A stretch of 64,000 nucleotides of DNA from an uncultured virus (IMG/VR IMGVR_UViG_3300031774_002347) (taxonomy: Duplodnaviria > Heunggongvirae > Uroviricota > Caudoviricetes): the IMG/VR virus record IMGVR_UViG_3300031774_002347; one strand, 5' to 3'. A model generated the notes under the pieces. The model saw only the letters and a list, made by a program, of their open reading frames with translations. It was not told where the DNA came from and made no database searches. Positions within the stretch are counted from its first letter, which is position 1. Every line of letters begins with the position of its first letter. Positions 20,718 to 49,795 of the stretch are shown piece after piece. The position numbers and the translations under genes were made by a program.

Positions 20718-21421
20718 TGAAGATAAAAGTATTAGACCACATTGGTTACATAGAATTAGTAGATAGTATGGGGGATGATTTAACTCCAGTAAATGCAGCT
20801 CGTGTATCATTTGGTGCAAAGAGTGATAAATTTACGGATAAAGATAGAAAATTATCAAACTATCTGATTAAACACAAACACTTCTCACCATTCAGACATC
20901 AACACATTCAAGTTATTATCAAAGCACCAGAATTTGTAATGAGACAATGGTACAAACATATTGTTGGTATTGAAACCACATCATCAAGTGTTACAAAAGA
21001 CCATGCTTGGAATGAGATAAGTGGTAGATATATGCCAGTAAAAGAATTTTATTATCCACAAGTATGGAGAAAACAGAGTGATGATAATAAACAAGCAAGT
21101 GATGGTGAATTAACAAAGTTCCAATCTAATCAGGCATTACTTAACTATGGTGATTTGATGAGAAAGATGACAGAAACATATGAACATTTTATAAAGATGG
21201 GGATGGCAAAGGAACAAGCTAGAATTGTATTACCACTATCACAATACACATTGGTTTATTGGACAGCATCTTTTCAAAGTGTTATGAACTTCATAGAATT
21301 ACGAGATGAACCTACTTCACAATGGGAAATAAGGGAATATGCTATTGCATTAAAAGAAATGATGATGAAAACATTTCCTGAAACCACTAAGTTGTGGAGT
21401 AAAAATTATTGGGATAAGTAG
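20717..21421 (+). CDS. thyX: Flavin-dependent thymidylate synthase
   Basis: VNAARVSFG, HFSPF, APEFVMRQW, NEISGRY, EQARIVLP, FIELR..QWEIR. Confidence 0.92.
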   Translation: MKIKVLDHIGYIELVDSMGDDLTPVNAARVSFGAKSDKFTDKDRKLSNYLIKHKHFSPFRHQHIQVIIKAPEFVMRQWYKHIVGIETTSSSVTKDHAWNEISGRYMPVKEFYYPQVWRKQSDDNKQASDGELTKFQSNQALLNYGDLMRKMTETYEHFIKMGMAKEQARIVLPLSQYTLVYWTASFQSVMNFIELRDEPTSQWEIREYAIALKEMMMKTFPETTKLWSKNYWDK

Positions 21422-22305
21422 TGAAAGGTTGGATATTTACAACGCAAACTACACCATCTTACGAAACAAAAAGATTAATTGAATGTTTTGATAAAGAGGG
21501 TATAGAGTGTTTTTTTGTACATCCAAATAATGTTGATATATTCATTAGTAAAGATAATAGAAAATCGGTATTAGTAGAGAATGAACATACATCAATACCT
21601 GATTTTGTTATACCAAGAGTTGGAAGTGCAACTACATATTACCAAAAAGCAGTATTCAGACATTTAGAAAGAATGGGTGTATTGTTTGTCAATGGTAGTG
21701 ATGCAATCGATAATGTAAAAGACAAACTTTATACAATGCAAATACTATCACAGAATAATATTCCACATCCAAAAACTATGTTGGTTAAGAATCCAATAGA
21801 TTCAAATTATGTACAGAGAAACATTGGATTTCCTATTGTGGTTAAATCACTAAGTGGTACTCACGGAAAGGGTGTTTATCTTGCAGATAATAAATCAAAC
21901 TTCGAACAATTAGTAGAGATGATGGAACAATTCAATGATAGGTTTAATATCATATTACAAGAATTTGTAAAGGATTCATTCGGTAGAGATTTGAGAATTA
22001 TTGTAGTGGGTGGTAAAGTGATTGGAGCAATGAAACGAGAATCAGTAGATGGAGATTTTAGAGCAAATGTTACACGAGGTGGTGGTGCAAAACCAGTAGA
22101 ACTCGATGAACAAATGGAATATCTTGCATTAGAATCTACAAAACTATTAGGATTAGATATAGGTGGTGTAGATTTATTATATGATGAGGATGGATACAAA
22201 ATATGTGAGGTTAACTCTTCACCTGGTTTTCAAGGTATGGAAAAATATACTGAAATAAGAGTTGCCGAACAGATAGTTACTTATGTAAAGAATAAATTAA
22301 ATTAA
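21421..22305 (+). CDS. rimK: RimK-family ATP-grasp alpha-L-glutamate ligase
   Basis: FPIVVKSLSGTHGKGV, ILQEFV, DLRIIVVG, DFRANV, GVDLL, CEVNSSPGF. Confidence 0.85.
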   Translation: MKGWIFTTQTTPSYETKRLIECFDKEGIECFFVHPNNVDIFISKDNRKSVLVENEHTSIPDFVIPRVGSATTYYQKAVFRHLERMGVLFVNGSDAIDNVKDKLYTMQILSQNNIPHPKTMLVKNPIDSNYVQRNIGFPIVVKSLSGTHGKGVYLADNKSNFEQLVEMMEQFNDRFNIILQEFVKDSFGRDLRIIVVGGKVIGAMKRESVDGDFRANVTRGGGAKPVELDEQMEYLALESTKLLGLDIGGVDLLYDEDGYKICEVNSSPGFQGMEKYTEIRVAEQIVTYVKNKLN

Positions 22306-26789: not shown

Positions 26790-27230
26790 ATGAAGAACAT
26801 AATCAAAAACACAAGTAAAGGATTCACATTGATTGAATTAGTAATGGTAACAATCATATTGGGAATCTTAGCAGCAGTTGCTATTCCAAGATATCAACAG
26901 ACAGTTGATAATGCAGAAGCAACCGCTGAAAAGGCATTTGTCGATATGGTGTGGGCAGGTTGTGAACAAGAGGCTTCTGAAAGATTGACTGAGTTTGGTC
27001 TTGAAGCATGGCCTTATAATCCGTTAACTACTATTGGTAGAAGTCGTAACTTATCAGTTACATTGTTTGAGGGAATACCTGATGAAGATAACGAGTGGCA
27101 GTTTAGTATAGATGCAGTTGGTGAACCAGCAATATTTCATCACAGAAGAAATGATGAAATCTATTACTACAAATACGATTCAACAACATTTGAATTGGAT
27201 GAACTACCTACTCTATACACCAATGAGTAA
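26790..27230 (+). CDS. Type IV pilin (class III signal peptide)
   Basis: Canonical SKG|FTLIELVMVTIILGILAAVAIPRY. Confidence 0.9.
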   Translation: MKNIIKNTSKGFTLIELVMVTIILGILAAVAIPRYQQTVDNAEATAEKAFVDMVWAGCEQEASERLTEFGLEAWPYNPLTTIGRSRNLSVTLFEGIPDEDNEWQFSIDAVGEPAIFHHRRNDEIYYYKYDSTTFELDELPTLYTNE

Positions 27231-28108: not shown

Positions 28109-28477
28109 ATGAAGCGACTCTTTTGTTTACTCTTATTACAATTACCTTTATATGCTCAATTAACCGAGATAGACCTTGAAGTCCAAGAGGATTGGAATAG
28201 GCAGAATAATAATTCTGAAATCCCACAACCTATTAGGCCATTTGAATTATATGAGTTTGACCTCCCACCAAGTATAATAAAACCAGTTGGAAAAGTGGAA
28301 GTTGAATTTGAAATAAATGAGAATGGTGAAGTAGAAAATCCAATCGTAATAGACACATTTAATGTTGAGTTAAATGAAGTAGTAATTGATAAAGTAAAAC
28401 AAACCAAGTACAAACCTGCAACACAAAATGGTAGACCAGTAAAAGTAAGATTCAAACTTCCAATAATTTTTCAGTAG
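28109..28477 (+). CDS. Exported TonB C-terminal domain protein
   Basis: Signal peptide, then GKVEVEFEINENGEVENP...YKPATQNGRPVKVRFKLPIIF. Confidence 0.85.
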   Translation: MKRLFCLLLLQLPLYAQLTEIDLEVQEDWNRQNNNSEIPQPIRPFELYEFDLPPSIIKPVGKVEVEFEINENGEVENPIVIDTFNVELNEVVIDKVKQTKYKPATQNGRPVKVRFKLPIIFQ

Positions 28478-28484
28478 GGGGCAC

Positions 28485-28518
28485 AAAAAAAGGGGAACTA
28501 AACATTCCCCTTTTTTAT
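28485..28518. terminator. Bidirectional intrinsic terminator
   Basis: AAAAAAAGGGGAA-loop-TTCCCCTTTTTTT between convergent genes. Confidence 0.8.
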
Positions 28519-28528
28519 TTATTGAAGA

Positions 28529-28723
28529 TTACTTACTTCCAAAGATTTTAGAAAAGAACCCTTTTTTAGATTTCTTACCTTTACTTCCACCAAGTTTCTT
28601 TTTCTTCTTTTTCTTCTTCTTGACTTCTTCCATATTATCCATTTTCATATCCATAGCATTCACTTGCGGAACTGCTCCAAAGAAAATAAATAAAGAAAGT
28701 ATACCAGTTAGTATTGTTTTCAT
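28529..28723 (-). CDS. Small secreted Lys-rich peptide
   Basis: Signal peptide MKTILTGILSLFIFFGAVPQVNA, then poly-Lys and KKGFFSKIFGSK; SD AGGAG. Confidence 0.6.
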   Translation of the reverse strand: MKTILTGILSLFIFFGAVPQVNAMDMKMDNMEEVKKKKKKKKKLGGSKGKKSKKGFFSKIFGSK

Positions 28724-28884
28724 ACTAAACTCCTGAGATAACGCGTTGAAATTAACTCATAATCGGTTAATTAACAATAAATATCAACTTTTTTTACTTT
28801 TTTTGAAAAAAAAATGTATTTTGGGAATTTATATACATATATATTAATGTATCAAGATTGAGATACAAAGTTTTTTGACAATTT

Positions 28885-29298
28885 AGAATTTTGTGAAAGT
28901 ATTGAGAGTAATTATCTCAATATGGGATTGACCGAATAATGGGTGCTACTTAGAAGCCCATAAGGTAATCTACCAAATGTTGTGGTGACAGGAACTCTGC
29001 TAAATGTTGTAGAGGTGTAACGGTCCTTATAGACATATAATTTGGAATGTACTTTTAGAAAAAACAAGAGCGATTCTTGGACTTCATTGTGGGTAAGGGT
29101 AAAACTGAAATCCCACTTAATGGCTGAATTAATCTATACTCAGAGAGATAAAGCAATGACATAGAGGTTGTACTCGATTCTACGATGATTAACCATCATT
29201 TAAGAATAACTATCGTAACTGGTAGATGTTAGGTATGAAGTAATAAAATCTGAGCTAAAAGTTGTAGGTAATCGCAAATCCTACATCCCCCAAATTCT
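28885..29298 (+). ncRNA. Candidate large structured non-coding RNA (~415 nt)
   Basis: Largest gap in the ORF track; many nested helices plus a crossing helix; promoter motif upstream and terminator downstream. Confidence 0.65.
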
Positions 29299-29304
29299 TT
29301 AATT

Positions 29305-29377
29305 AAAAAAAGGTTCAACCGAAATTTTAGTTTCCACTTATAAATAAACTTAAAATATCGACCGAACCTTTTTTTTT
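29305..29377 (+). terminator. Long hairpin terminator ending the candidate ncRNA
   Basis: AAAAAAAGGTTC...GAACCTTTTTTTTT. Confidence 0.65.
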
Positions 29378-29491
29378 GCAAAAAACTAAAATAAATTACA
29401 TTTTAACTATCTTAATTGATATATATTATTGTATCAAGGTTACACTTGATTAACAAATGAAAAATGAACATAAACAAATGGAGAATATGAA

Positions 29492-30268
29492 ATGGATTTA
29501 AATGCAATAAAAAAACGCCTCGGGCAGTTACAAACTACTAACAATCGAACTTCCAGTCTTTGGAAACCACAACCAGGTAAAACTCAAATTCGTATCGTAC
29601 CTTACTCATTCAATAAAGATAATCCTTTTATTGAATTATTTTTTCACTACAATCTGAGCAATCGCTCTTATTTATCACCAATTTCTTTTGGTAGACCAGA
29701 CCCTATTGAAGAGTTTGCTCAAAAACTAAAAGCAAGTGGTAATAAGGAAGATTATCAGTTATCACGCAAACTTGAAGCAAAAATGAGAACTTTTGCTCCT
29801 GTCATTGTTCGTGGTGAAGAATCACAAGGTGTGAAGTTTTGGGGATTTGGAAAGACAGTTTATCAAGAACTACTTTCAGTAATCGCAGACCCTGATTATG
29901 GTGATATTACAGACCCAGTAAATGGTCGTGATGTGGTTGTTGAGTTTATCTCTGCAGAAGAGAGTGGAGCAAGTTATCCTAAAACTAACATTCGTGTAAA
30001 ACCTAATCAAACACCAATCTCAGATGAACCTGAAGTATTGGAAAAAGTTAAAGCACAACAAGACATTACAGAGATATATCAAGAATTATCATATGATGAT
30101 ATGACAGATGTATTGAATGAATGGTTAAATCCAGATGGGGAAACTACTGAAACAACAAATTCAGAAGTATCATCAACTGAGAAAGCCGTTAAAGAAAATG
30201 TAGCTGAAATCGAAACATCTAAAGTAAGTAATACTGGTGATGCTTTTGATGAGTTGTTTAACTCGTAA
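29492..30268 (+). CDS. Single-stranded DNA-binding protein (T4 gp32-like)
   Basis: WKPQPGKTQIRIVP, FWGFGKTVY, DITDPVNGRD, acidic tail ending FDELFNS. Confidence 0.85.
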   Translation: MDLNAIKKRLGQLQTTNNRTSSLWKPQPGKTQIRIVPYSFNKDNPFIELFFHYNLSNRSYLSPISFGRPDPIEEFAQKLKASGNKEDYQLSRKLEAKMRTFAPVIVRGEESQGVKFWGFGKTVYQELLSVIADPDYGDITDPVNGRDVVVEFISAEESGASYPKTNIRVKPNQTPISDEPEVLEKVKAQQDITEIYQELSYDDMTDVLNEWLNPDGETTETTNSEVSSTEKAVKENVAEIETSKVSNTGDAFDELFNS

Positions 30269-42461: not shown

Positions 42462-43709
42462 ATGTATTTAGAATACTTTGATAAATTTAAAGGTATGACT
42501 CCTTATCTTGAAATAGATGAGAAAGAGTGGGAGTATATCAAAGAAACATTCGAAAAGGATGATGTCAAAGAGAGTCTTGCAAAAGTAGCAATGACTTATG
42601 AGATTCCCTATGCCACTATTTCAGAGGATGATGCTTATAAAGCTTTAATGAAGTTAAAGGGTATGAGACATAATGAAATATTGGTAGAGGGAGAGTGGTT
42701 TGCTCGAGAGGGAACTGCATACAGATATGGTTTAGAATTTGAGGGTAAACAACAATACTTTAGAAGAATCAACACAGGTAATGCTGCCAGTAATTTCTTC
42801 CAACAAGTCAATCGTTGGAGTGTGGATGGAACAATTGCACCAGGCCCAAAGAGAACTTGGGAAACAGAAAAATATATGACATCACTTATGGGTGCTGCAT
42901 ATACTTTGAAGTTACCAAAAATTACTGCGGGTAATCTTAGGATTATGTTGAGTTTGAGGAAGTATATTTGTTCTCAATTTAAACCTAATGTTGCAAAAGT
43001 ATTGTATGATAAATTGGGTAGTGAGAACATATTAGATTTCTCTGCAGGCTGGGGAGATAGATTAGCAGGATTCTATGGTAGTGAGAGTGGTAAGTATTAT
43101 CTTGGGATAGACCCACGAAAAGAAAACCATCCTATCTACAGAGAACAAAAAGAGTTCTATGAAAAACACAGAAATATGTTTTTCGAGGTTGATAAAGATT
43201 CAGAGTTTTTAGAATCACCAGCAGAAGATGTGGAGTTTGAAGAGTACAAAGATATATTTGACACCGTCTTTACATCACCACCATATTTTGGTGTAGAGAG
43301 GTATAGTTATGATGATACTCAAAGTTGGGTTAGATATAAAACTATTGATGAATGGAATGATAAATTTTTACAGGCAACTATTAAAAAATTATGGTGTTCT
43401 ATAAAAAGTGGTGGATATTTATTAGTGAATATAAGTGATGTTTATGCAAGTAGTGGAGCAAAACAAAAGAAGATGGGTACTAATGGTAAGTATTGGTTGG
43501 AGATTTGTAATCCTATGAATGATTTTGTATCAACATTTACTGATTCAGAGTATCAAGGTTGTATTGGAATGGAAATGGCTAAACGACCTAATAGTGGTGG
43601 TGCAGGAACTGCAGCAGAAGATAGATTCAAAGATGAGACGAGGGAACTGGCGGAACAAACAAAAGATAAAACATTTTGTGAACCGATTTGGATATGGAAA
43701 AAACTTTAA
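42462..43709 (+). CDS. Amino-DNA methyltransferase (m4C/m6A)
   Basis: Motif I ILDFSAGWGDR and motif IV FTSPPYF. Confidence 0.8.
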   Translation: MYLEYFDKFKGMTPYLEIDEKEWEYIKETFEKDDVKESLAKVAMTYEIPYATISEDDAYKALMKLKGMRHNEILVEGEWFAREGTAYRYGLEFEGKQQYFRRINTGNAASNFFQQVNRWSVDGTIAPGPKRTWETEKYMTSLMGAAYTLKLPKITAGNLRIMLSLRKYICSQFKPNVAKVLYDKLGSENILDFSAGWGDRLAGFYGSESGKYYLGIDPRKENHPIYREQKEFYEKHRNMFFEVDKDSEFLESPAEDVEFEEYKDIFDTVFTSPPYFGVERYSYDDTQSWVRYKTIDEWNDKFLQATIKKLWCSIKSGGYLLVNISDVYASSGAKQKKMGTNGKYWLEICNPMNDFVSTFTDSEYQGCIGMEMAKRPNSGGAGTAAEDRFKDETRELAEQTKDKTFCEPIWIWKKL

Positions 43710-44248
43710 TAGAAAAAAGATTATTTACTAAAGAAGAATGTGAAAAAATAAAATCATATGCTAAATTAAAAGTTAGAGTAATTGATGTCTACCATAACGA
43801 ATATGAAAAGGTTGGTAGTAAAATGTTATCAGATACTTTGCCTTGGGGTAACTCACCTTATGATATATCTTGGGTTTATAATAGGATTAAGGATTGGACA
43901 GATACCTTAGATTTAAACATTGATAATCTTGGTTACTCAATGATAATATGTCACTATAGTAAAGGTTGTTATTTTAAACCACATATAGATGATGTTATGA
44001 CAGGTACTGAGGGTGAAATTCTAAGGAAGAGATGTTTTACGATTGGTATTCAATTATCTGATAAAGAGTATGGTGAATATGAGGGTGGAGAATTACAATT
44101 TGAAACTAACGATGGTGTTAGAACAATGAAACAAGATGCTGGGTATGTTTGGATAGCAGATAAACATTTACATTGGGTAAATGAAGTTACATCTGGTATT
44201 CGATGGAGTGTTCAGATATTTTTAGAACAAGATGCAATAAAGGAATAG
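43694..44248 (+). CDS. 2OG-Fe(II) oxygenase (P4H/PKHD-like)
   Basis: PHID...YEGGELQF...HWVNEVTSGIRWS. Confidence 0.85.
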   Translation: MEKTLIEKRLFTKEECEKIKSYAKLKVRVIDVYHNEYEKVGSKMLSDTLPWGNSPYDISWVYNRIKDWTDTLDLNIDNLGYSMIICHYSKGCYFKPHIDDVMTGTEGEILRKRCFTIGIQLSDKEYGEYEGGELQFETNDGVRTMKQDAGYVWIADKHLHWVNEVTSGIRWSVQIFLEQDAIKE

Positions 44249-47414: not shown

Positions 47415-48005
47415 ATGAAAAAAAATAATGGTTTTAAGTATTATGTTGAAAAGGAAAACTTTCTAAGTGATTCAGAAATAGATTTTATTAAAAATAAAAG
47501 TTTTGGTGAATCTCAACACACAATCAATACCAATGGTAGTAGAGCCGAACTTGTTGGTTTGGGTGGTAGTGAGGTTAGAGATTACAGAAAAGCAACAGAG
47601 TTCCAAATAGAAAGTAGTAAAATTACTGATAAAATATTAAATCTCACTAAGGTTGCTAATAAACTACATTTCAATTACGATATTGATTGGGATTCTTACG
47701 AGAATTTCAAACTATTAAAATATGTAAAGGGTGATGGGTATGGATGGCATCCAGATTTTGGTAAAGGTGATGAATCAACGAGAAAATTAAGTGTTATAGT
47801 TCAATTATCAGATGGTGATGATTATGATGGTGGAGATTTAGAGTTTGCATTAACAACCAAAGATAGTGATAGTTTTGTTAAGGGTACGAGAAAAAAGGGG
47901 AGTGTAATTATTTTTAATCCATTAGTAATACATAGAATTACACCATTACTTTCTGGCTCAAGATATTCCATCGTTGGTTGGTTACACGGAGATACTTTTA
48001 GGTGA
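47415..48005 (+). CDS. 2OG-Fe(II) oxygenase
   Basis: WHPD...RKLSVIVQLSD..YDGGDL...HRITPLLSGSRYS. Confidence 0.9.
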   Translation: MKKNNGFKYYVEKENFLSDSEIDFIKNKSFGESQHTINTNGSRAELVGLGGSEVRDYRKATEFQIESSKITDKILNLTKVANKLHFNYDIDWDSYENFKLLKYVKGDGYGWHPDFGKGDESTRKLSVIVQLSDGDDYDGGDLEFALTTKDSDSFVKGTRKKGSVIIFNPLVIHRITPLLSGSRYSIVGWLHGDTFR

Positions 48006-48610
48006 AAGAAAACAATGATTTTAAATGGTTTATACATTTACCATTTCTTAGTGTAGAACAATGTAATGATTTAGTAAAAAAAGTTAAGGGTGAAGATAGT
48101 TGGGTTCAAGGTGGAACATATAATCCACAAGAAGAAGAGCCTACAAAAGTTAATCCATCTCACCATCGTGATTGTAATGAAATATATTTATTACCAGAAT
48201 TAAATAGTAATATAAAGAATGATTATAGTTGGTTGGTAGATAAACTAAATACTATAGTAAAGATTACAAATGATAGGGTTTGGAAATTCGATATTGAACG
48301 AAATCAAGGGGATTTTAGAACTATTGAATATCAAAAGGGAGACCATTTCAATTGGCATTCGGGTACAGATGCTGGAATACTATCATTAAACAAAATAACT
48401 TGCTTGATTCAAATATCCGACCCAAAAGATTTTGATGGTGGTGATTTACATTTTGCATTTAGTAATGAAAAAGAAGATTTTTTTAAATGTCCATATAAAC
48501 AAGGATATTTATTTATGTTCCCATCGTTTACGAACCATATGGTTACACCACTTAAAAGTGGAGAAAGATTTATAATGAGAGAAACCTACATAGGAGAACC
48601 ACTAAGATGA
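48002..48610 (+). CDS. 2OG-Fe(II) oxygenase with HxG in place of HxD
   Basis: WHSGTDAG...FDGGDL...HMVTPLKSGER. Confidence 0.8.
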   Translation: MKENNDFKWFIHLPFLSVEQCNDLVKKVKGEDSWVQGGTYNPQEEEPTKVNPSHHRDCNEIYLLPELNSNIKNDYSWLVDKLNTIVKITNDRVWKFDIERNQGDFRTIEYQKGDHFNWHSGTDAGILSLNKITCLIQISDPKDFDGGDLHFAFSNEKEDFFKCPYKQGYLFMFPSFTNHMVTPLKSGERFIMRETYIGEPLR

Positions 48611-49215
48611 AAAAGAATGAAAACTTTCAATGGTATATGACAAAACCAAACTTCTTTACACCAGAAGAATGTGATGAGTTTATTGAAAGGGTTAAAAGTA
48701 CGGAAAAGGGTGAGACAGGTTGTATAGAACCACATATGGGTTCAGACCATAATTTAGAATTTAGAAGTGTTAAAGAATGGTATTTACATAAAGATATGAG
48801 AGATTATGCAAAGGGTGATTATTCAGATATACAACAGAAATTATTTCTATCTGCAAAAGTAATGAATCAGTTATCTTGGAACTTTAATATTCAAGAAGTA
48901 GAAAACAATATAAAAATGATTCAGTATAATGGAGAGACTGAAGATTTTTATACTTGGCATTCAGATTTTAATGCAGGTCAAAGTTCTTTAAGAAAGTTAG
49001 CGTGTATTGTACAATTAACAGACCCAAGTGAATATGAGGGTGGTAAAACACAATTTGCTATACAAGACCCACATTCTATGGAGTATTATACAATTCCACA
49101 AGAAAAGGGAACTTTAATTGTATTCTCACCAATATTTTTTCATAGAGTAACTCCAGTTACAAAGGGAATACGACATTGTATTCAAGAATTTATAATAGGT
49201 GATACCTTTGTATAA
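48607..49215 (+). CDS. 2OG-Fe(II) oxygenase
   Basis: WHSD...YEGG...HRVTPVTKGIR. Confidence 0.9.
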   Translation: MKKNENFQWYMTKPNFFTPEECDEFIERVKSTEKGETGCIEPHMGSDHNLEFRSVKEWYLHKDMRDYAKGDYSDIQQKLFLSAKVMNQLSWNFNIQEVENNIKMIQYNGETEDFYTWHSDFNAGQSSLRKLACIVQLTDPSEYEGGKTQFAIQDPHSMEYYTIPQEKGTLIVFSPIFFHRVTPVTKGIRHCIQEFIIGDTFV

Positions 49216-49795
49216 ACCAGTAGAACAGAACTTTACACCTAATCCAAATTTTAGATGGTGGGTGGATAGAAAAAACTTTATTACTCAAGAAGAGTGTGAT
49301 GAGTTTATAACACGAATTGATAAAGATTGTGTGAAGAAACAAAAGGATGTTTACTATGGTGCAGATTCTAATCCTAAGTATAAAAAAGACCCTGCAGTTT
49401 GTAACTTAAATGTTGCACTCTATACGGATGAGGAAATATTAACAAAATATTGGAACGCATTTAAACTAGCAAATCAACTTTATTATAAATTTGATATCGG
49501 TGGGATTCATAGAAATGAATATACTGGTCATAAATATGAAGTTGGAGATTGGTACACACCACACGCAGATTTTCATCCATCAGATGATTTCAGTATAGTT
49601 AAAATGACTGCAGTATTATTTTTAAATAATGAATATGAGGGTGGAGATTTTATATTATTTGATGATACTATAATTGAACCAGAACCAGGTAGATTGATTA
49701 TATTTCCATCATTTGCAGGACACCAAGTTACACCAGTTACTAAAGGTGTAAGGTACACAAGTGTTTGTTGGGTTGCAGGAAACACTTTTAAATAA
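49199..49795 (+). CDS. 2OG-Fe(II) oxygenase
   Basis: PHAD...YEGGDF...HQVTPVTKGVRY. Confidence 0.9.
   Translation: MIPLYKPVEQNFTPNPNFRWWVDRKNFITQEECDEFITRIDKDCVKKQKDVYYGADSNPKYKKDPAVCNLNVALYTDEEILTKYWNAFKLANQLYYKFDIGGIHRNEYTGHKYEVGDWYTPHADFHPSDDFSIVKMTAVLFLNNEYEGGDFILFDDTIIEPEPGRLIIFPSFAGHQVTPVTKGVRYTSVCWVAGNTFK

Follow-up and report, generated by a model that had tools for sequence, protein, structure and literature searches.

The 64,000 nucleotides (nt) of DNA analysed here, referred to as the window, come from the uncultured virus record IMGVR_UViG_3300031774_002347 of IMG/VR. A gene-free gap of this window, located between a minus-strand open reading frame (ORF) at 28529-28723 and the gp32 gene at 29492-30268, holds on its plus strand an enlarged version of the manA RNA that consists of two modules. 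The outer fold is made of the elements P1a, S, P2a, P3a and P5. A second manA-like module (P1b, P2b and P3b) is nested inside two long-range helices, H1 and H2, and is locked by a pseudoknot of 6 base pairs (bp), and an extra helix, P0, joins the two ends of the RNA. An earlier note, made from the letters of the sequence, had proposed a large, ornate and pseudoknotted non-coding RNA on the plus strand, and the covariation described below upholds that proposal. Its guess at the class, i.e., an RNA of the GOLLD or ROOL type or a new one, has to be replaced by manA (RF01745), a family known since 2010.

A manA module nested inside another

The assignment comes from the covariance-model scan that the earlier note had recommended. 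Over the whole window and all 4227 Rfam families only one match exceeded its threshold, manA at 29088-29289, with 64.3 bits for a cut-off of 55.2, and this match spans the inner module plus the P5 hairpin of the outer one. A permissive scan of 801 nt (28700-29500) gave in addition a partial manA match at 28900-29032, below threshold (25.9 bits, E 1.5e-4). Neither GOLLD nor ROOL was matched, at gathering threshold in the window or up to E = 10 in 28700-29500. Seven relatives score between 55.5 and 64.7 bits on the Rfam manA model, and since such values (55-65 bits) lie so near the cut-off, the catalogue model barely reaches this clade.

The elements that characterize manA are found in the expected order. 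The 5' hairpin followed by a G-rich strand that closes the junction corresponds to P1a and the pairing GGGAU/AUCCC. The internal-loop hairpin ACUGAAUAA ... UAAGGU is present twice, at 28931-28966 and at 29123-29154. The multi-hairpin arm has a GUGGU loop in the outer module (28982-28986) and a GUUGUA loop and UAACCA (around 29190-29195) in the inner one, and the 3' hairpin GG-UA..AAU-CC is located directly before the 3' closing strand, at 29264-29284. Canonical seed rows of the family show a matching order, GGGAGUG-ACUGAAUAA ... UAAGGU ... GUGGUG ... GG-UA..AAU-CC ... CUCCC. The simple P4 hairpin is absent, its model positions being deleted by Rfam in both matches, and in its place we found H1 and H2, which enclose about 200 nt. 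Because of this replacement the RNA is filed here as a manA variant and not as a typical member. When a model was built from the inner module alone, its best non-self match over both strands of the 64-kb window was the outer module (28928-29015, 20 bits, rough E 0.017), so the two modules look related, and they likely arose by internal duplication. In the excerpts of the literature naming manA RNA or RF01745 no nested or two-module form is described, and subscription journals and supplements may hold more.

Homologues were collected by two routes. Through the protein encoded by the neighbouring gp32 gene we obtained 80 IMG/VR loci, 33 of which carry the region (blastn, 68-82% identity), and alignment A2 contains 22 homologues chosen in this way (20 distinct). 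The second route was independent of the first and used a 22-nt pattern in the P1b loop, which was present in at least 119 viral contigs, 80 of them fetched; alignment A3 contains 56 sequences chosen through this loop motif, 55 of them distinct. The helices of the earlier note were evaluated as one structure plus the pseudoknot, 118 pairs altogether, with the 3' partners slid by 1-3 columns as control. In A2, 91.2% of 2294 cells pair (36-44% for the slid partners) and double changes are found in 67 of the 118 pairs, a count that none of 500 shuffles reached. In A3, standard pairs fill 91.7% of 6056 cells (slid partners, 37-44%), and double changes affect 77 of the 118 pairs, compared to a mean of 54.7 in the shuffles, again with 0 of 500 reaching the observed count. 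RNAalifold, run without any hint, recovered most of the same helices, with double changes in 57 of its 95 predicted pairs. The compensatory changes among homologues that the earlier note proposed to look for are therefore present. A script confirmed that its ten nested helices and the pseudoknot are located at the coordinates it gave and form standard pairs in the window. One-base trims apply to the sixth pair of CCAAAT/ATTTGG and to the outermost pair of TGTAGG/CCTACA, each of which competes with a neighbouring helix.

The strand is indicated by G-U pairs, which are near-universal at some positions of A3 (e.g., GU in 54 of 55 sequences and UG in 55 of 55). On the opposite strand these conserved pairs would read A-C, which places the RNA on the plus strand, and the fold of the minus strand has a z of -0.09. 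We also searched A3 for further covarying loop-loop contacts, and only the known helices were returned as supported. All the other candidates reuse columns already paired in better-supported helices and for this reason were rejected as effects of shared ancestry.

The folded core would extend from 28885 to 29298 on the plus strand. P0, which closes the whole RNA, is formed by 28885-28891 and 29292-29298. It is poorly aligned by MAFFT (71% paired), and in a duplex test with 47 distinct flank pairs the cognate combinations gave a mean of -8.23 kcal/mol, the non-cognate ones -6.06 and the shuffled ones -3.18, none of 2000 permutations reaching the observed mean. The hairpin P1a (28899-28923), aligned by Rfam to manA P1 and thus the P1 of the outer module, is 86% paired and has 4 double-change pairs. 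It is followed by GGGAU (28924-28928), the 5' strand of the junction-closing stem S, whose partner AUCCC (29285-29289) lies about 360 nt away. S is 100% paired in 55 sequences, with a GC pair changed to AU on both sides in the same 7 of them, and was predicted by RNAalifold unprompted. P2a (28931-28966) carries the manA signature ACCGAAUAA ... AUAAGGU and agrees with the canonical seed rows; its two helices are 93% and 100% paired, with double changes in 3 of 3 and 5 of 6 pairs. The multi-hairpin arm of the outer module, P3a (28973-29045), has helices that are 98%, 68% and 94.5% paired and includes a hairpin with a GUGGU loop (28978-28990) and another with a GACA loop (29027-29040).

H1 occupies the place of the canonical P4 hairpin and is formed by 29051-29058 and 29255-29262 (96.6% paired, double changes in 6 of 8 pairs). 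The next hairpin, Hx (29065-29079, CAAGA/TCTTG), contains in its loop and 3' strand a GAUUC that does not vary, and is not aligned correctly in A3. When the 39 distinct segments were folded on their own, every one of them formed Hx, with the conserved start of the loop unpaired in 37, and its outermost pair is UA in 13 cases, CG in 11, AU in 11 and UG in 4. H2 (29081-29087 with 29235-29241; 94.8% paired, 5 of 7 double-change pairs) encloses the inner module. In this module P1b (29089-29116) is 100% paired and has a nearly invariant loop of 18 nt, which is identical in 22 of 22 rows of A2, chosen through gp32, while its invariance in A3 is a consequence of the search pattern. P2b (29123-29154), also 100% paired, carries a second GCUGAAUUAA ... 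AUAAAGC, and the three-hairpin arm P3b (29157-29231), with the loops GUUGUA, UAACCA and GUAACU, has helices that are 99%, 100%, 99%, 78% and 99% paired and was aligned by Rfam to manA P3. The P2b loop (CUCAGA, 29139-29144) pairs with UCUGAG at 29249-29254, i.e., the CTCAGA/TCTGAG pseudoknot already proposed by eye, which ties this loop to the strand between H2 and H1. All its cells are paired in A3 (100%) and 3 of its 6 pairs show double changes, the variants being CG/UA (28/27) and AU/GC/UA (27/22/6). P5 (29264-29284, GUAGG UAAUCGCAAAU CCUAC) is the canonical 3' hairpin of manA according to both the Rfam alignment and the seed rows, and is 100% paired with 3 double-change pairs. The 3' strands of S (29285-29289) and P0 (29292-29298) complete the stretch at 29285-29298, the former identified by pairing in A3 and the latter by the duplex test.

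Flanking signals and occurrence

The core is preceded on the plus strand by a promoter-like block (28802-28849) composed of an A-tract, TTTGGG (28820-28825) and ATATATATTAATG, which ends at 28849. The block is conserved in relatives, with the consensus A-tract, TTTGRG, about 17 nt and then ATATATAT(T/A)AAT(G/A)TA. Of 48 distinct upstream sequences, 35 contain the TTTGRG..TTT block and 42 the WTATATAT block. Exact copies of the 18-mer ATATATTAWTGTATCAAG are limited to two sites of the 64 kb, one before the RNA (28839-28856) and one before gp32 (29421-29438), which suggests a common regulator or timing class for both, and each copy is followed by a small hairpin. The hairpin next to the RNA (28848-28867) is probably the 5' end of the primary transcript. 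Its fold, -5.7 kcal/mol for a stretch of 39 nt (z -1.19), is not significant alone, and at the matching place of the relatives lies a hairpin whose sequence differs (alignments read by eye, uncounted). Between this hairpin and P0 lies a nearly invariant U-rich leader, AGUUUUUUGACAAUUU (28869-28884), identified from conserved columns in A3 and in the 48 upstream sequences, with an almost invariant consensus AGUUUUUUGA(C/A)AAUU across the relatives. The copy of the 18-mer before gp32 belongs to a separate promoter-like block that, together with a hairpin and the ribosome-binding site of gp32, occupies 29400-29491 on the same strand, as indicated by the 18-mer match, the fold and the alignment. 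A looser promoter pattern was found at 4 sites versus 1.5 expected. We also tried a Bacteroidetes-type promoter pattern, which produced 199 scattered matches and was uninformative.

Behind the core there is a terminator (29305-29381, plus strand), formed by an A-tract, a basal stem that is rich in G+C and variable, an upper part that is conserved (UUUUAGUUUCCAC ... ACUUAAAA) and a U-tract. The hairpin (29305-29377) folds with -17.9 kcal/mol (z -5.1), and its basal arms covary, with cognate arms at -11.76 versus -5.74 kcal/mol and 0 of 2000 permutations reaching this value. The upper core (29325-29337 and 29350-29358), with a single no-mismatch occurrence in the window, is kept in 41 of 55 distinct relatives, and the remaining 14 have a different hairpin followed by a U-tract. 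A sequence-conserved upper part over a freely varying basal stem is unusual for a plain terminator; this part might serve as a target for a protein or a nuclease, or constitute a third RNA domain. A subclade of nine loci (L088, L106, L113, L118, L122, L128, L132, L138 and L140) lacks the terminator core and has instead a conserved inverted repeat, TTGGAAAGT ... ACTTTCCAA, of about 75 nt, situated after the RNA and before a hairpin terminator of another kind. In most members of this subclade the upstream region differs too and contains a longer 5' hairpin.

The RNA unit is present or absent as a cassette before gp32 in related marine myoviruses. We surveyed 57 gp32 loci with enough upstream DNA, and the gap before the gene was long in 22 carriers (660-813 nt) and short in 31 non-carriers (86-132 nt). 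Among the other four loci, three carry the RNA according to blastn (in two the gap is shortened by a spurious ORF and in one no upstream ORF was found), and the fourth, L023, has a gap of 233 nt and no manA. In an Rfam scan of 20 distant gp32 loci, manA reached the threshold in none. The 80 loci fetched through the P1b loop, from the at least 119 that contain it, have gp32 downstream in 72 cases. Of the other loci, six with 1.2 kb of downstream DNA have no gp32 and two have it 0.7-1.0 kb away. As for the position expected of a cis-regulatory element, the RNA does stand before gp32 in those 72 loci, with the covarying terminator and the second promoter-like block in between.

The RNA is also present in four marine RNA libraries from four studies, which were consulted as assembled Logan contigs, a type of data from which neither the strand and level of a transcript nor its two ends can be read. 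The stretches 28915-29289, 28915-29312 and 28921-29254 are covered by contigs that match the window exactly. No contig from any of the four libraries covers 28601-28801 or 29338-29471, and these uncovered parts are at most a weak hint of the limits of the transcript. The depth of the window-identical contigs was 188, 35 and 17.4 on the RNA versus 2.1-5.6 on gp32 in the libraries X4, X8 and X2, and about equal on both in X1, an oligo-dT run. As genes cannot be ranked by contig depth, these values were not used as evidence.

Alternative readings and possible role

The nested fold has been weighed against two other explanations of the conservation. Two independent manA units placed side by side as a simple tandem, each folding alone, are what the two separate Rfam matches would suggest, and the Rfam alignment does close the first unit locally, on GUCCU near 29023. 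However, this local partner lies in an insert of P3a (29015-29026) that is missing from most relatives, while GGGAU pairs with the distant AUCCC in 55 of 55 sequences, with the same 7 changed on both sides. Moreover, the second unit is bracketed by H1 and H2, with their double changes in 6 of 8 and 5 of 7 pairs, and the P5 hairpin and the 3' closing strand each exist only once, all of which makes a simple tandem very improbable. We consider practically negligible the chance that a small protein gene or signals acting at the level of DNA, rather than an RNA fold, account for the conservation. Short ORFs of 35-51 amino acids do overlap the region in the window, but no conserved reading frame was found across the 56 homologues, whose longest ORFs range from 23 to 98 amino acids (median 40). 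Besides, 1310 of the 1378 gap runs are not multiples of three, and compensatory substitutions such as those found in 77 of the 118 pairs argue against coding.

Regarding function, we favour a stand-alone phage RNA that acts in trans, which in our judgement is likely. The primary transcript would probably run from about 28848 to about 29381, would be started at its own promoter together with the replication genes and would end at its own terminator, leaving a stable folded RNA acting in trans. The self-contained gene layout with a terminator argues for this kind of RNA rather than for a gene switch, and so does the fact that the library contigs cover the RNA and neither flank. The competing view, a cis-acting riboswitch or leader in which the binding of a ligand decides between a stop at the hairpin 29305-29381 and read-through into gp32, appears clearly unlikely to us. 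In its favour, an excerpt of Weinberg et al. (2010; PMC2864571) rates manA as a probable riboswitch in 5' untranslated regions, including those of nucleotide-synthesis genes. The RNA, too, is found before gp32 and on the same strand in 72 of 80 loci, with a terminator directly after the fold. Yet a switch of the terminator type needs a part of the fold that competes with the terminator, and the 5' arm of the terminator co-varies with its own 3' arm and not with the body of the RNA. Against the body it gave -9.79 kcal/mol in cognate and -10.14 in non-cognate combinations, 1919 of 2000 permutations being at least as good, so that an expression platform in which the terminator pairing excludes part of an aptamer was not found. 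Furthermore, a separate copy of the promoter-like motif follows the terminator and precedes gp32, the gene is preserved in 31 related loci that lack the RNA and have a gap of 86-132 nt, six loci have other DNA without gp32 for 1.2 kb downstream, and in the four runs no contig bridges 29338-29471, a weak point as it comes from contigs only. Within the stand-alone reading, it is rather doubtful that the primary transcript is a precursor from which P0 and the flanks are trimmed to leave a mature RNA of about 28895-29289. The depth-188 contig of X4, identical to the window, ends at 29289 and continues into what we take to be a sequencing adapter, and the contig of a relative in X1 starts at the position matching 28895, behind what is presumably a template-switch oligo. 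On the other hand, the X8 contig continues to 29312 and X1 contigs reach 28820, contig ends can also come from strain variation or from stops of the reverse transcriptase in a very stable fold, and the covariation of P0 speaks for a use of this helix in at least one form of the RNA.

As for the role of a trans-acting RNA of this type, the partial text of a recent preprint (bioRxiv 10.64898/2026.07.01.735769) reports that canonical manA RNAs of less than 200 nt assemble in vitro into octamers, decamers and an icosahedral cage of 60 subunits, and that, by cryo-EM (electron cryo-microscopy), the cages are built from pentamers held together by loop-loop contacts. By analogy, the nested RNA would most likely act as an RNA scaffold that associates with itself, a single chain contributing both modules. 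We put forward tentatively that it may be a two-module building block in which the contacts made elsewhere between chains are made within one chain. Slightly more speculative is the complete picture, in which the two modules, fixed by H1, H2 and the pseudoknot, would form a free RNA, abundant in widespread marine myoviruses, that assembles into RNA-only particles with a geometry unlike that of the decamers and 60-mers of single modules.

A number of observations weigh against parts of this interpretation. At the level of the fold, the whole RNA does not stand out from shuffled sequences in its minimum free energy (z -1.26, with 10 of 100 shuffles folding as well). Only one pair of S covaries, the other four being invariant. 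The middle hairpin of P3a (28995-29014) is variable and few relatives align there; its CTCTGC/GTAGAG helix does pair in the window, but belongs to the most variable part of the structure, with letters in only about 6 of the 55 rows of A3. The match between the two modules is weak (20 bits). At the level of the gene, the conserved promoter-like block and the covarying terminator stand from the claim that the RNA has its own promoter and terminator, but a simple promoter/terminator scan flagged neither of them, a sigma-70 scan gave nothing on the plus strand here, and we infer the promoter function of the block from its conservation only. One low-depth contig in X1 reaches back to 28820, and data consisting only of contigs cannot show the ends of a transcript. 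The synteny with gp32 is strong (72 of 80 loci), as it would also be for a cis-acting element. Lastly, the evidence for self-assembly, as given in the partial text of the preprint, is limited to canonical manA RNAs of less than 200 nt in vitro.

Genomic context and related RNAs

The phage of the window is a large marine myovirus of low G+C content (about 32%). Its structural genes include those for tail sheath, tube and baseplate, and it has a T4-like replication set with gp32, a UvsX/RecA-type recombinase, a 5'-3' exonuclease, a DnaB-like helicase, a ribonucleotide reductase, a family B polymerase, the clamp and the clamp loader. The gene at 29492-30268 (plus strand) codes for a gp32-like single-stranded-DNA-binding protein (Pfam PF08804, 1e-12; PHROG ssDNA-binding protein), and it is the usual downstream neighbour of the RNA and lies outside the RNA itself. 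The nearest cultured relatives of this protein, those of Microcystis phage Mel-JY01 and Flavobacterium phage immuto, are 42-45% identical. The closest record, G001 (67 kb, with a completeness estimate of 33%), is identical over the RNA region except for one T in the terminator tail and therefore contributes no variation. None of 50,697 phage records was matched by the region in a blastn search, and there is thus no cultured carrier to inspect.

The P1b loop pattern was also found in a metagenome-assembled genome labelled Candidatus Pelagibacter sp. TMED203, on a 16-kb contig (L202) where manA scores 55.5 bits and gp32 shows 92% identity across 183 residues. It probably derives from a phage and entered the SAR11 genome bin through its composition. 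The binning of a phage contig is weak evidence, so that it provides at most a weak hint about the host and no host is assigned. Three contigs from assembled genomes labelled uncultured Campylobacter (L203, L204 and L205; G+C about 0.5) contain the 22-nt pattern as well, and in them neither manA nor any of the flanking motifs was found. By our own estimate about one such match is expected by chance, and the pattern in these three, if the contigs are homologous, may be a single chance match, or else it may belong to an unrelated element whose loop is the same.

Several other features of the surroundings deserve to be recorded. Just upstream of the RNA there are two genes for proteins with host-envelope-like functions, one with a TonB C-terminal domain (28109-28477, 1.3e-11) and one with a prepilin-type N-terminal methylation motif (26790-27230, 3.3e-7). 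A bidirectional terminator-like hairpin of 12 pairs with A and T runs alongside (28486-28516) sits between the TonB-like gene and the minus-strand ORF of 64 amino acids. In two distant relatives a tRNA gene is located directly after gp32 (L051, 3771-3843, and L052, 3774-3846). Elsewhere in the window, five paralogues of 2OG-Fe(II) oxygenases are found (43688-44248 and 47415-49795), four of them in an unbroken row, and the ORF at 21421-22305, which adjoins thymidylate synthase, matches the PHROG 'ribosomal protein S6 glutaminyl transferase' (1.2e-40).

The manA RNA has been an orphan 'riboswitch candidate' since 2010, and RNA-only cages formed by it in vitro were reported in 2026. The present case indicates that the manA fold is not confined to cyanophages and that it can take a nested form with two modules, which the catalogue model hardly recognizes. 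If the complete picture outlined above is true, viral RNA cages would have an independent second building plan, the first for which the layout of the gene (own promoter, own terminator and a place beside the replication genes) gives an indication of the time and manner of its use during infection. The RNA is easily found in ocean RNA libraries, and this presence, together with the layout, makes the question of switch or free particle directly testable on a defined RNA of 415 nt.

Compared to canonical manA, the RNA described here has a score above the Rfam threshold, the same order of elements and the same occurrence in marine phages, and shares the junction-closing GGGA(G/U)/(C/A)UCCC, the GAAUAA...UAAGG hairpin and the loops of the GUGGUG and ACCA types. 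It differs in its size, about 415 nt rather than about 190, in the replacement of P4 by two long-range helices around a second module, and in the additional hairpin Hx, the 6-bp pseudoknot and the end-to-end helix P0. It is also set apart by a terminator of its own, by the lack of signs of an expression platform and by its carriers, which are low-G+C (about 32%) myoviruses and not T4-like cyanophages. ROOL and GOLLD, which form RNA-only multimers as canonical manA is reported to do in the preprint, are likewise large and intricately folded non-coding phage RNAs, although the RNA described here is smaller and no relationship to them in sequence or fold was found. Tandem riboswitch aptamers, such as those for glycine, also combine two related modules in one RNA with long-range contacts; here, in contrast, no expression platform was found and one module is nested in an arm of the other.

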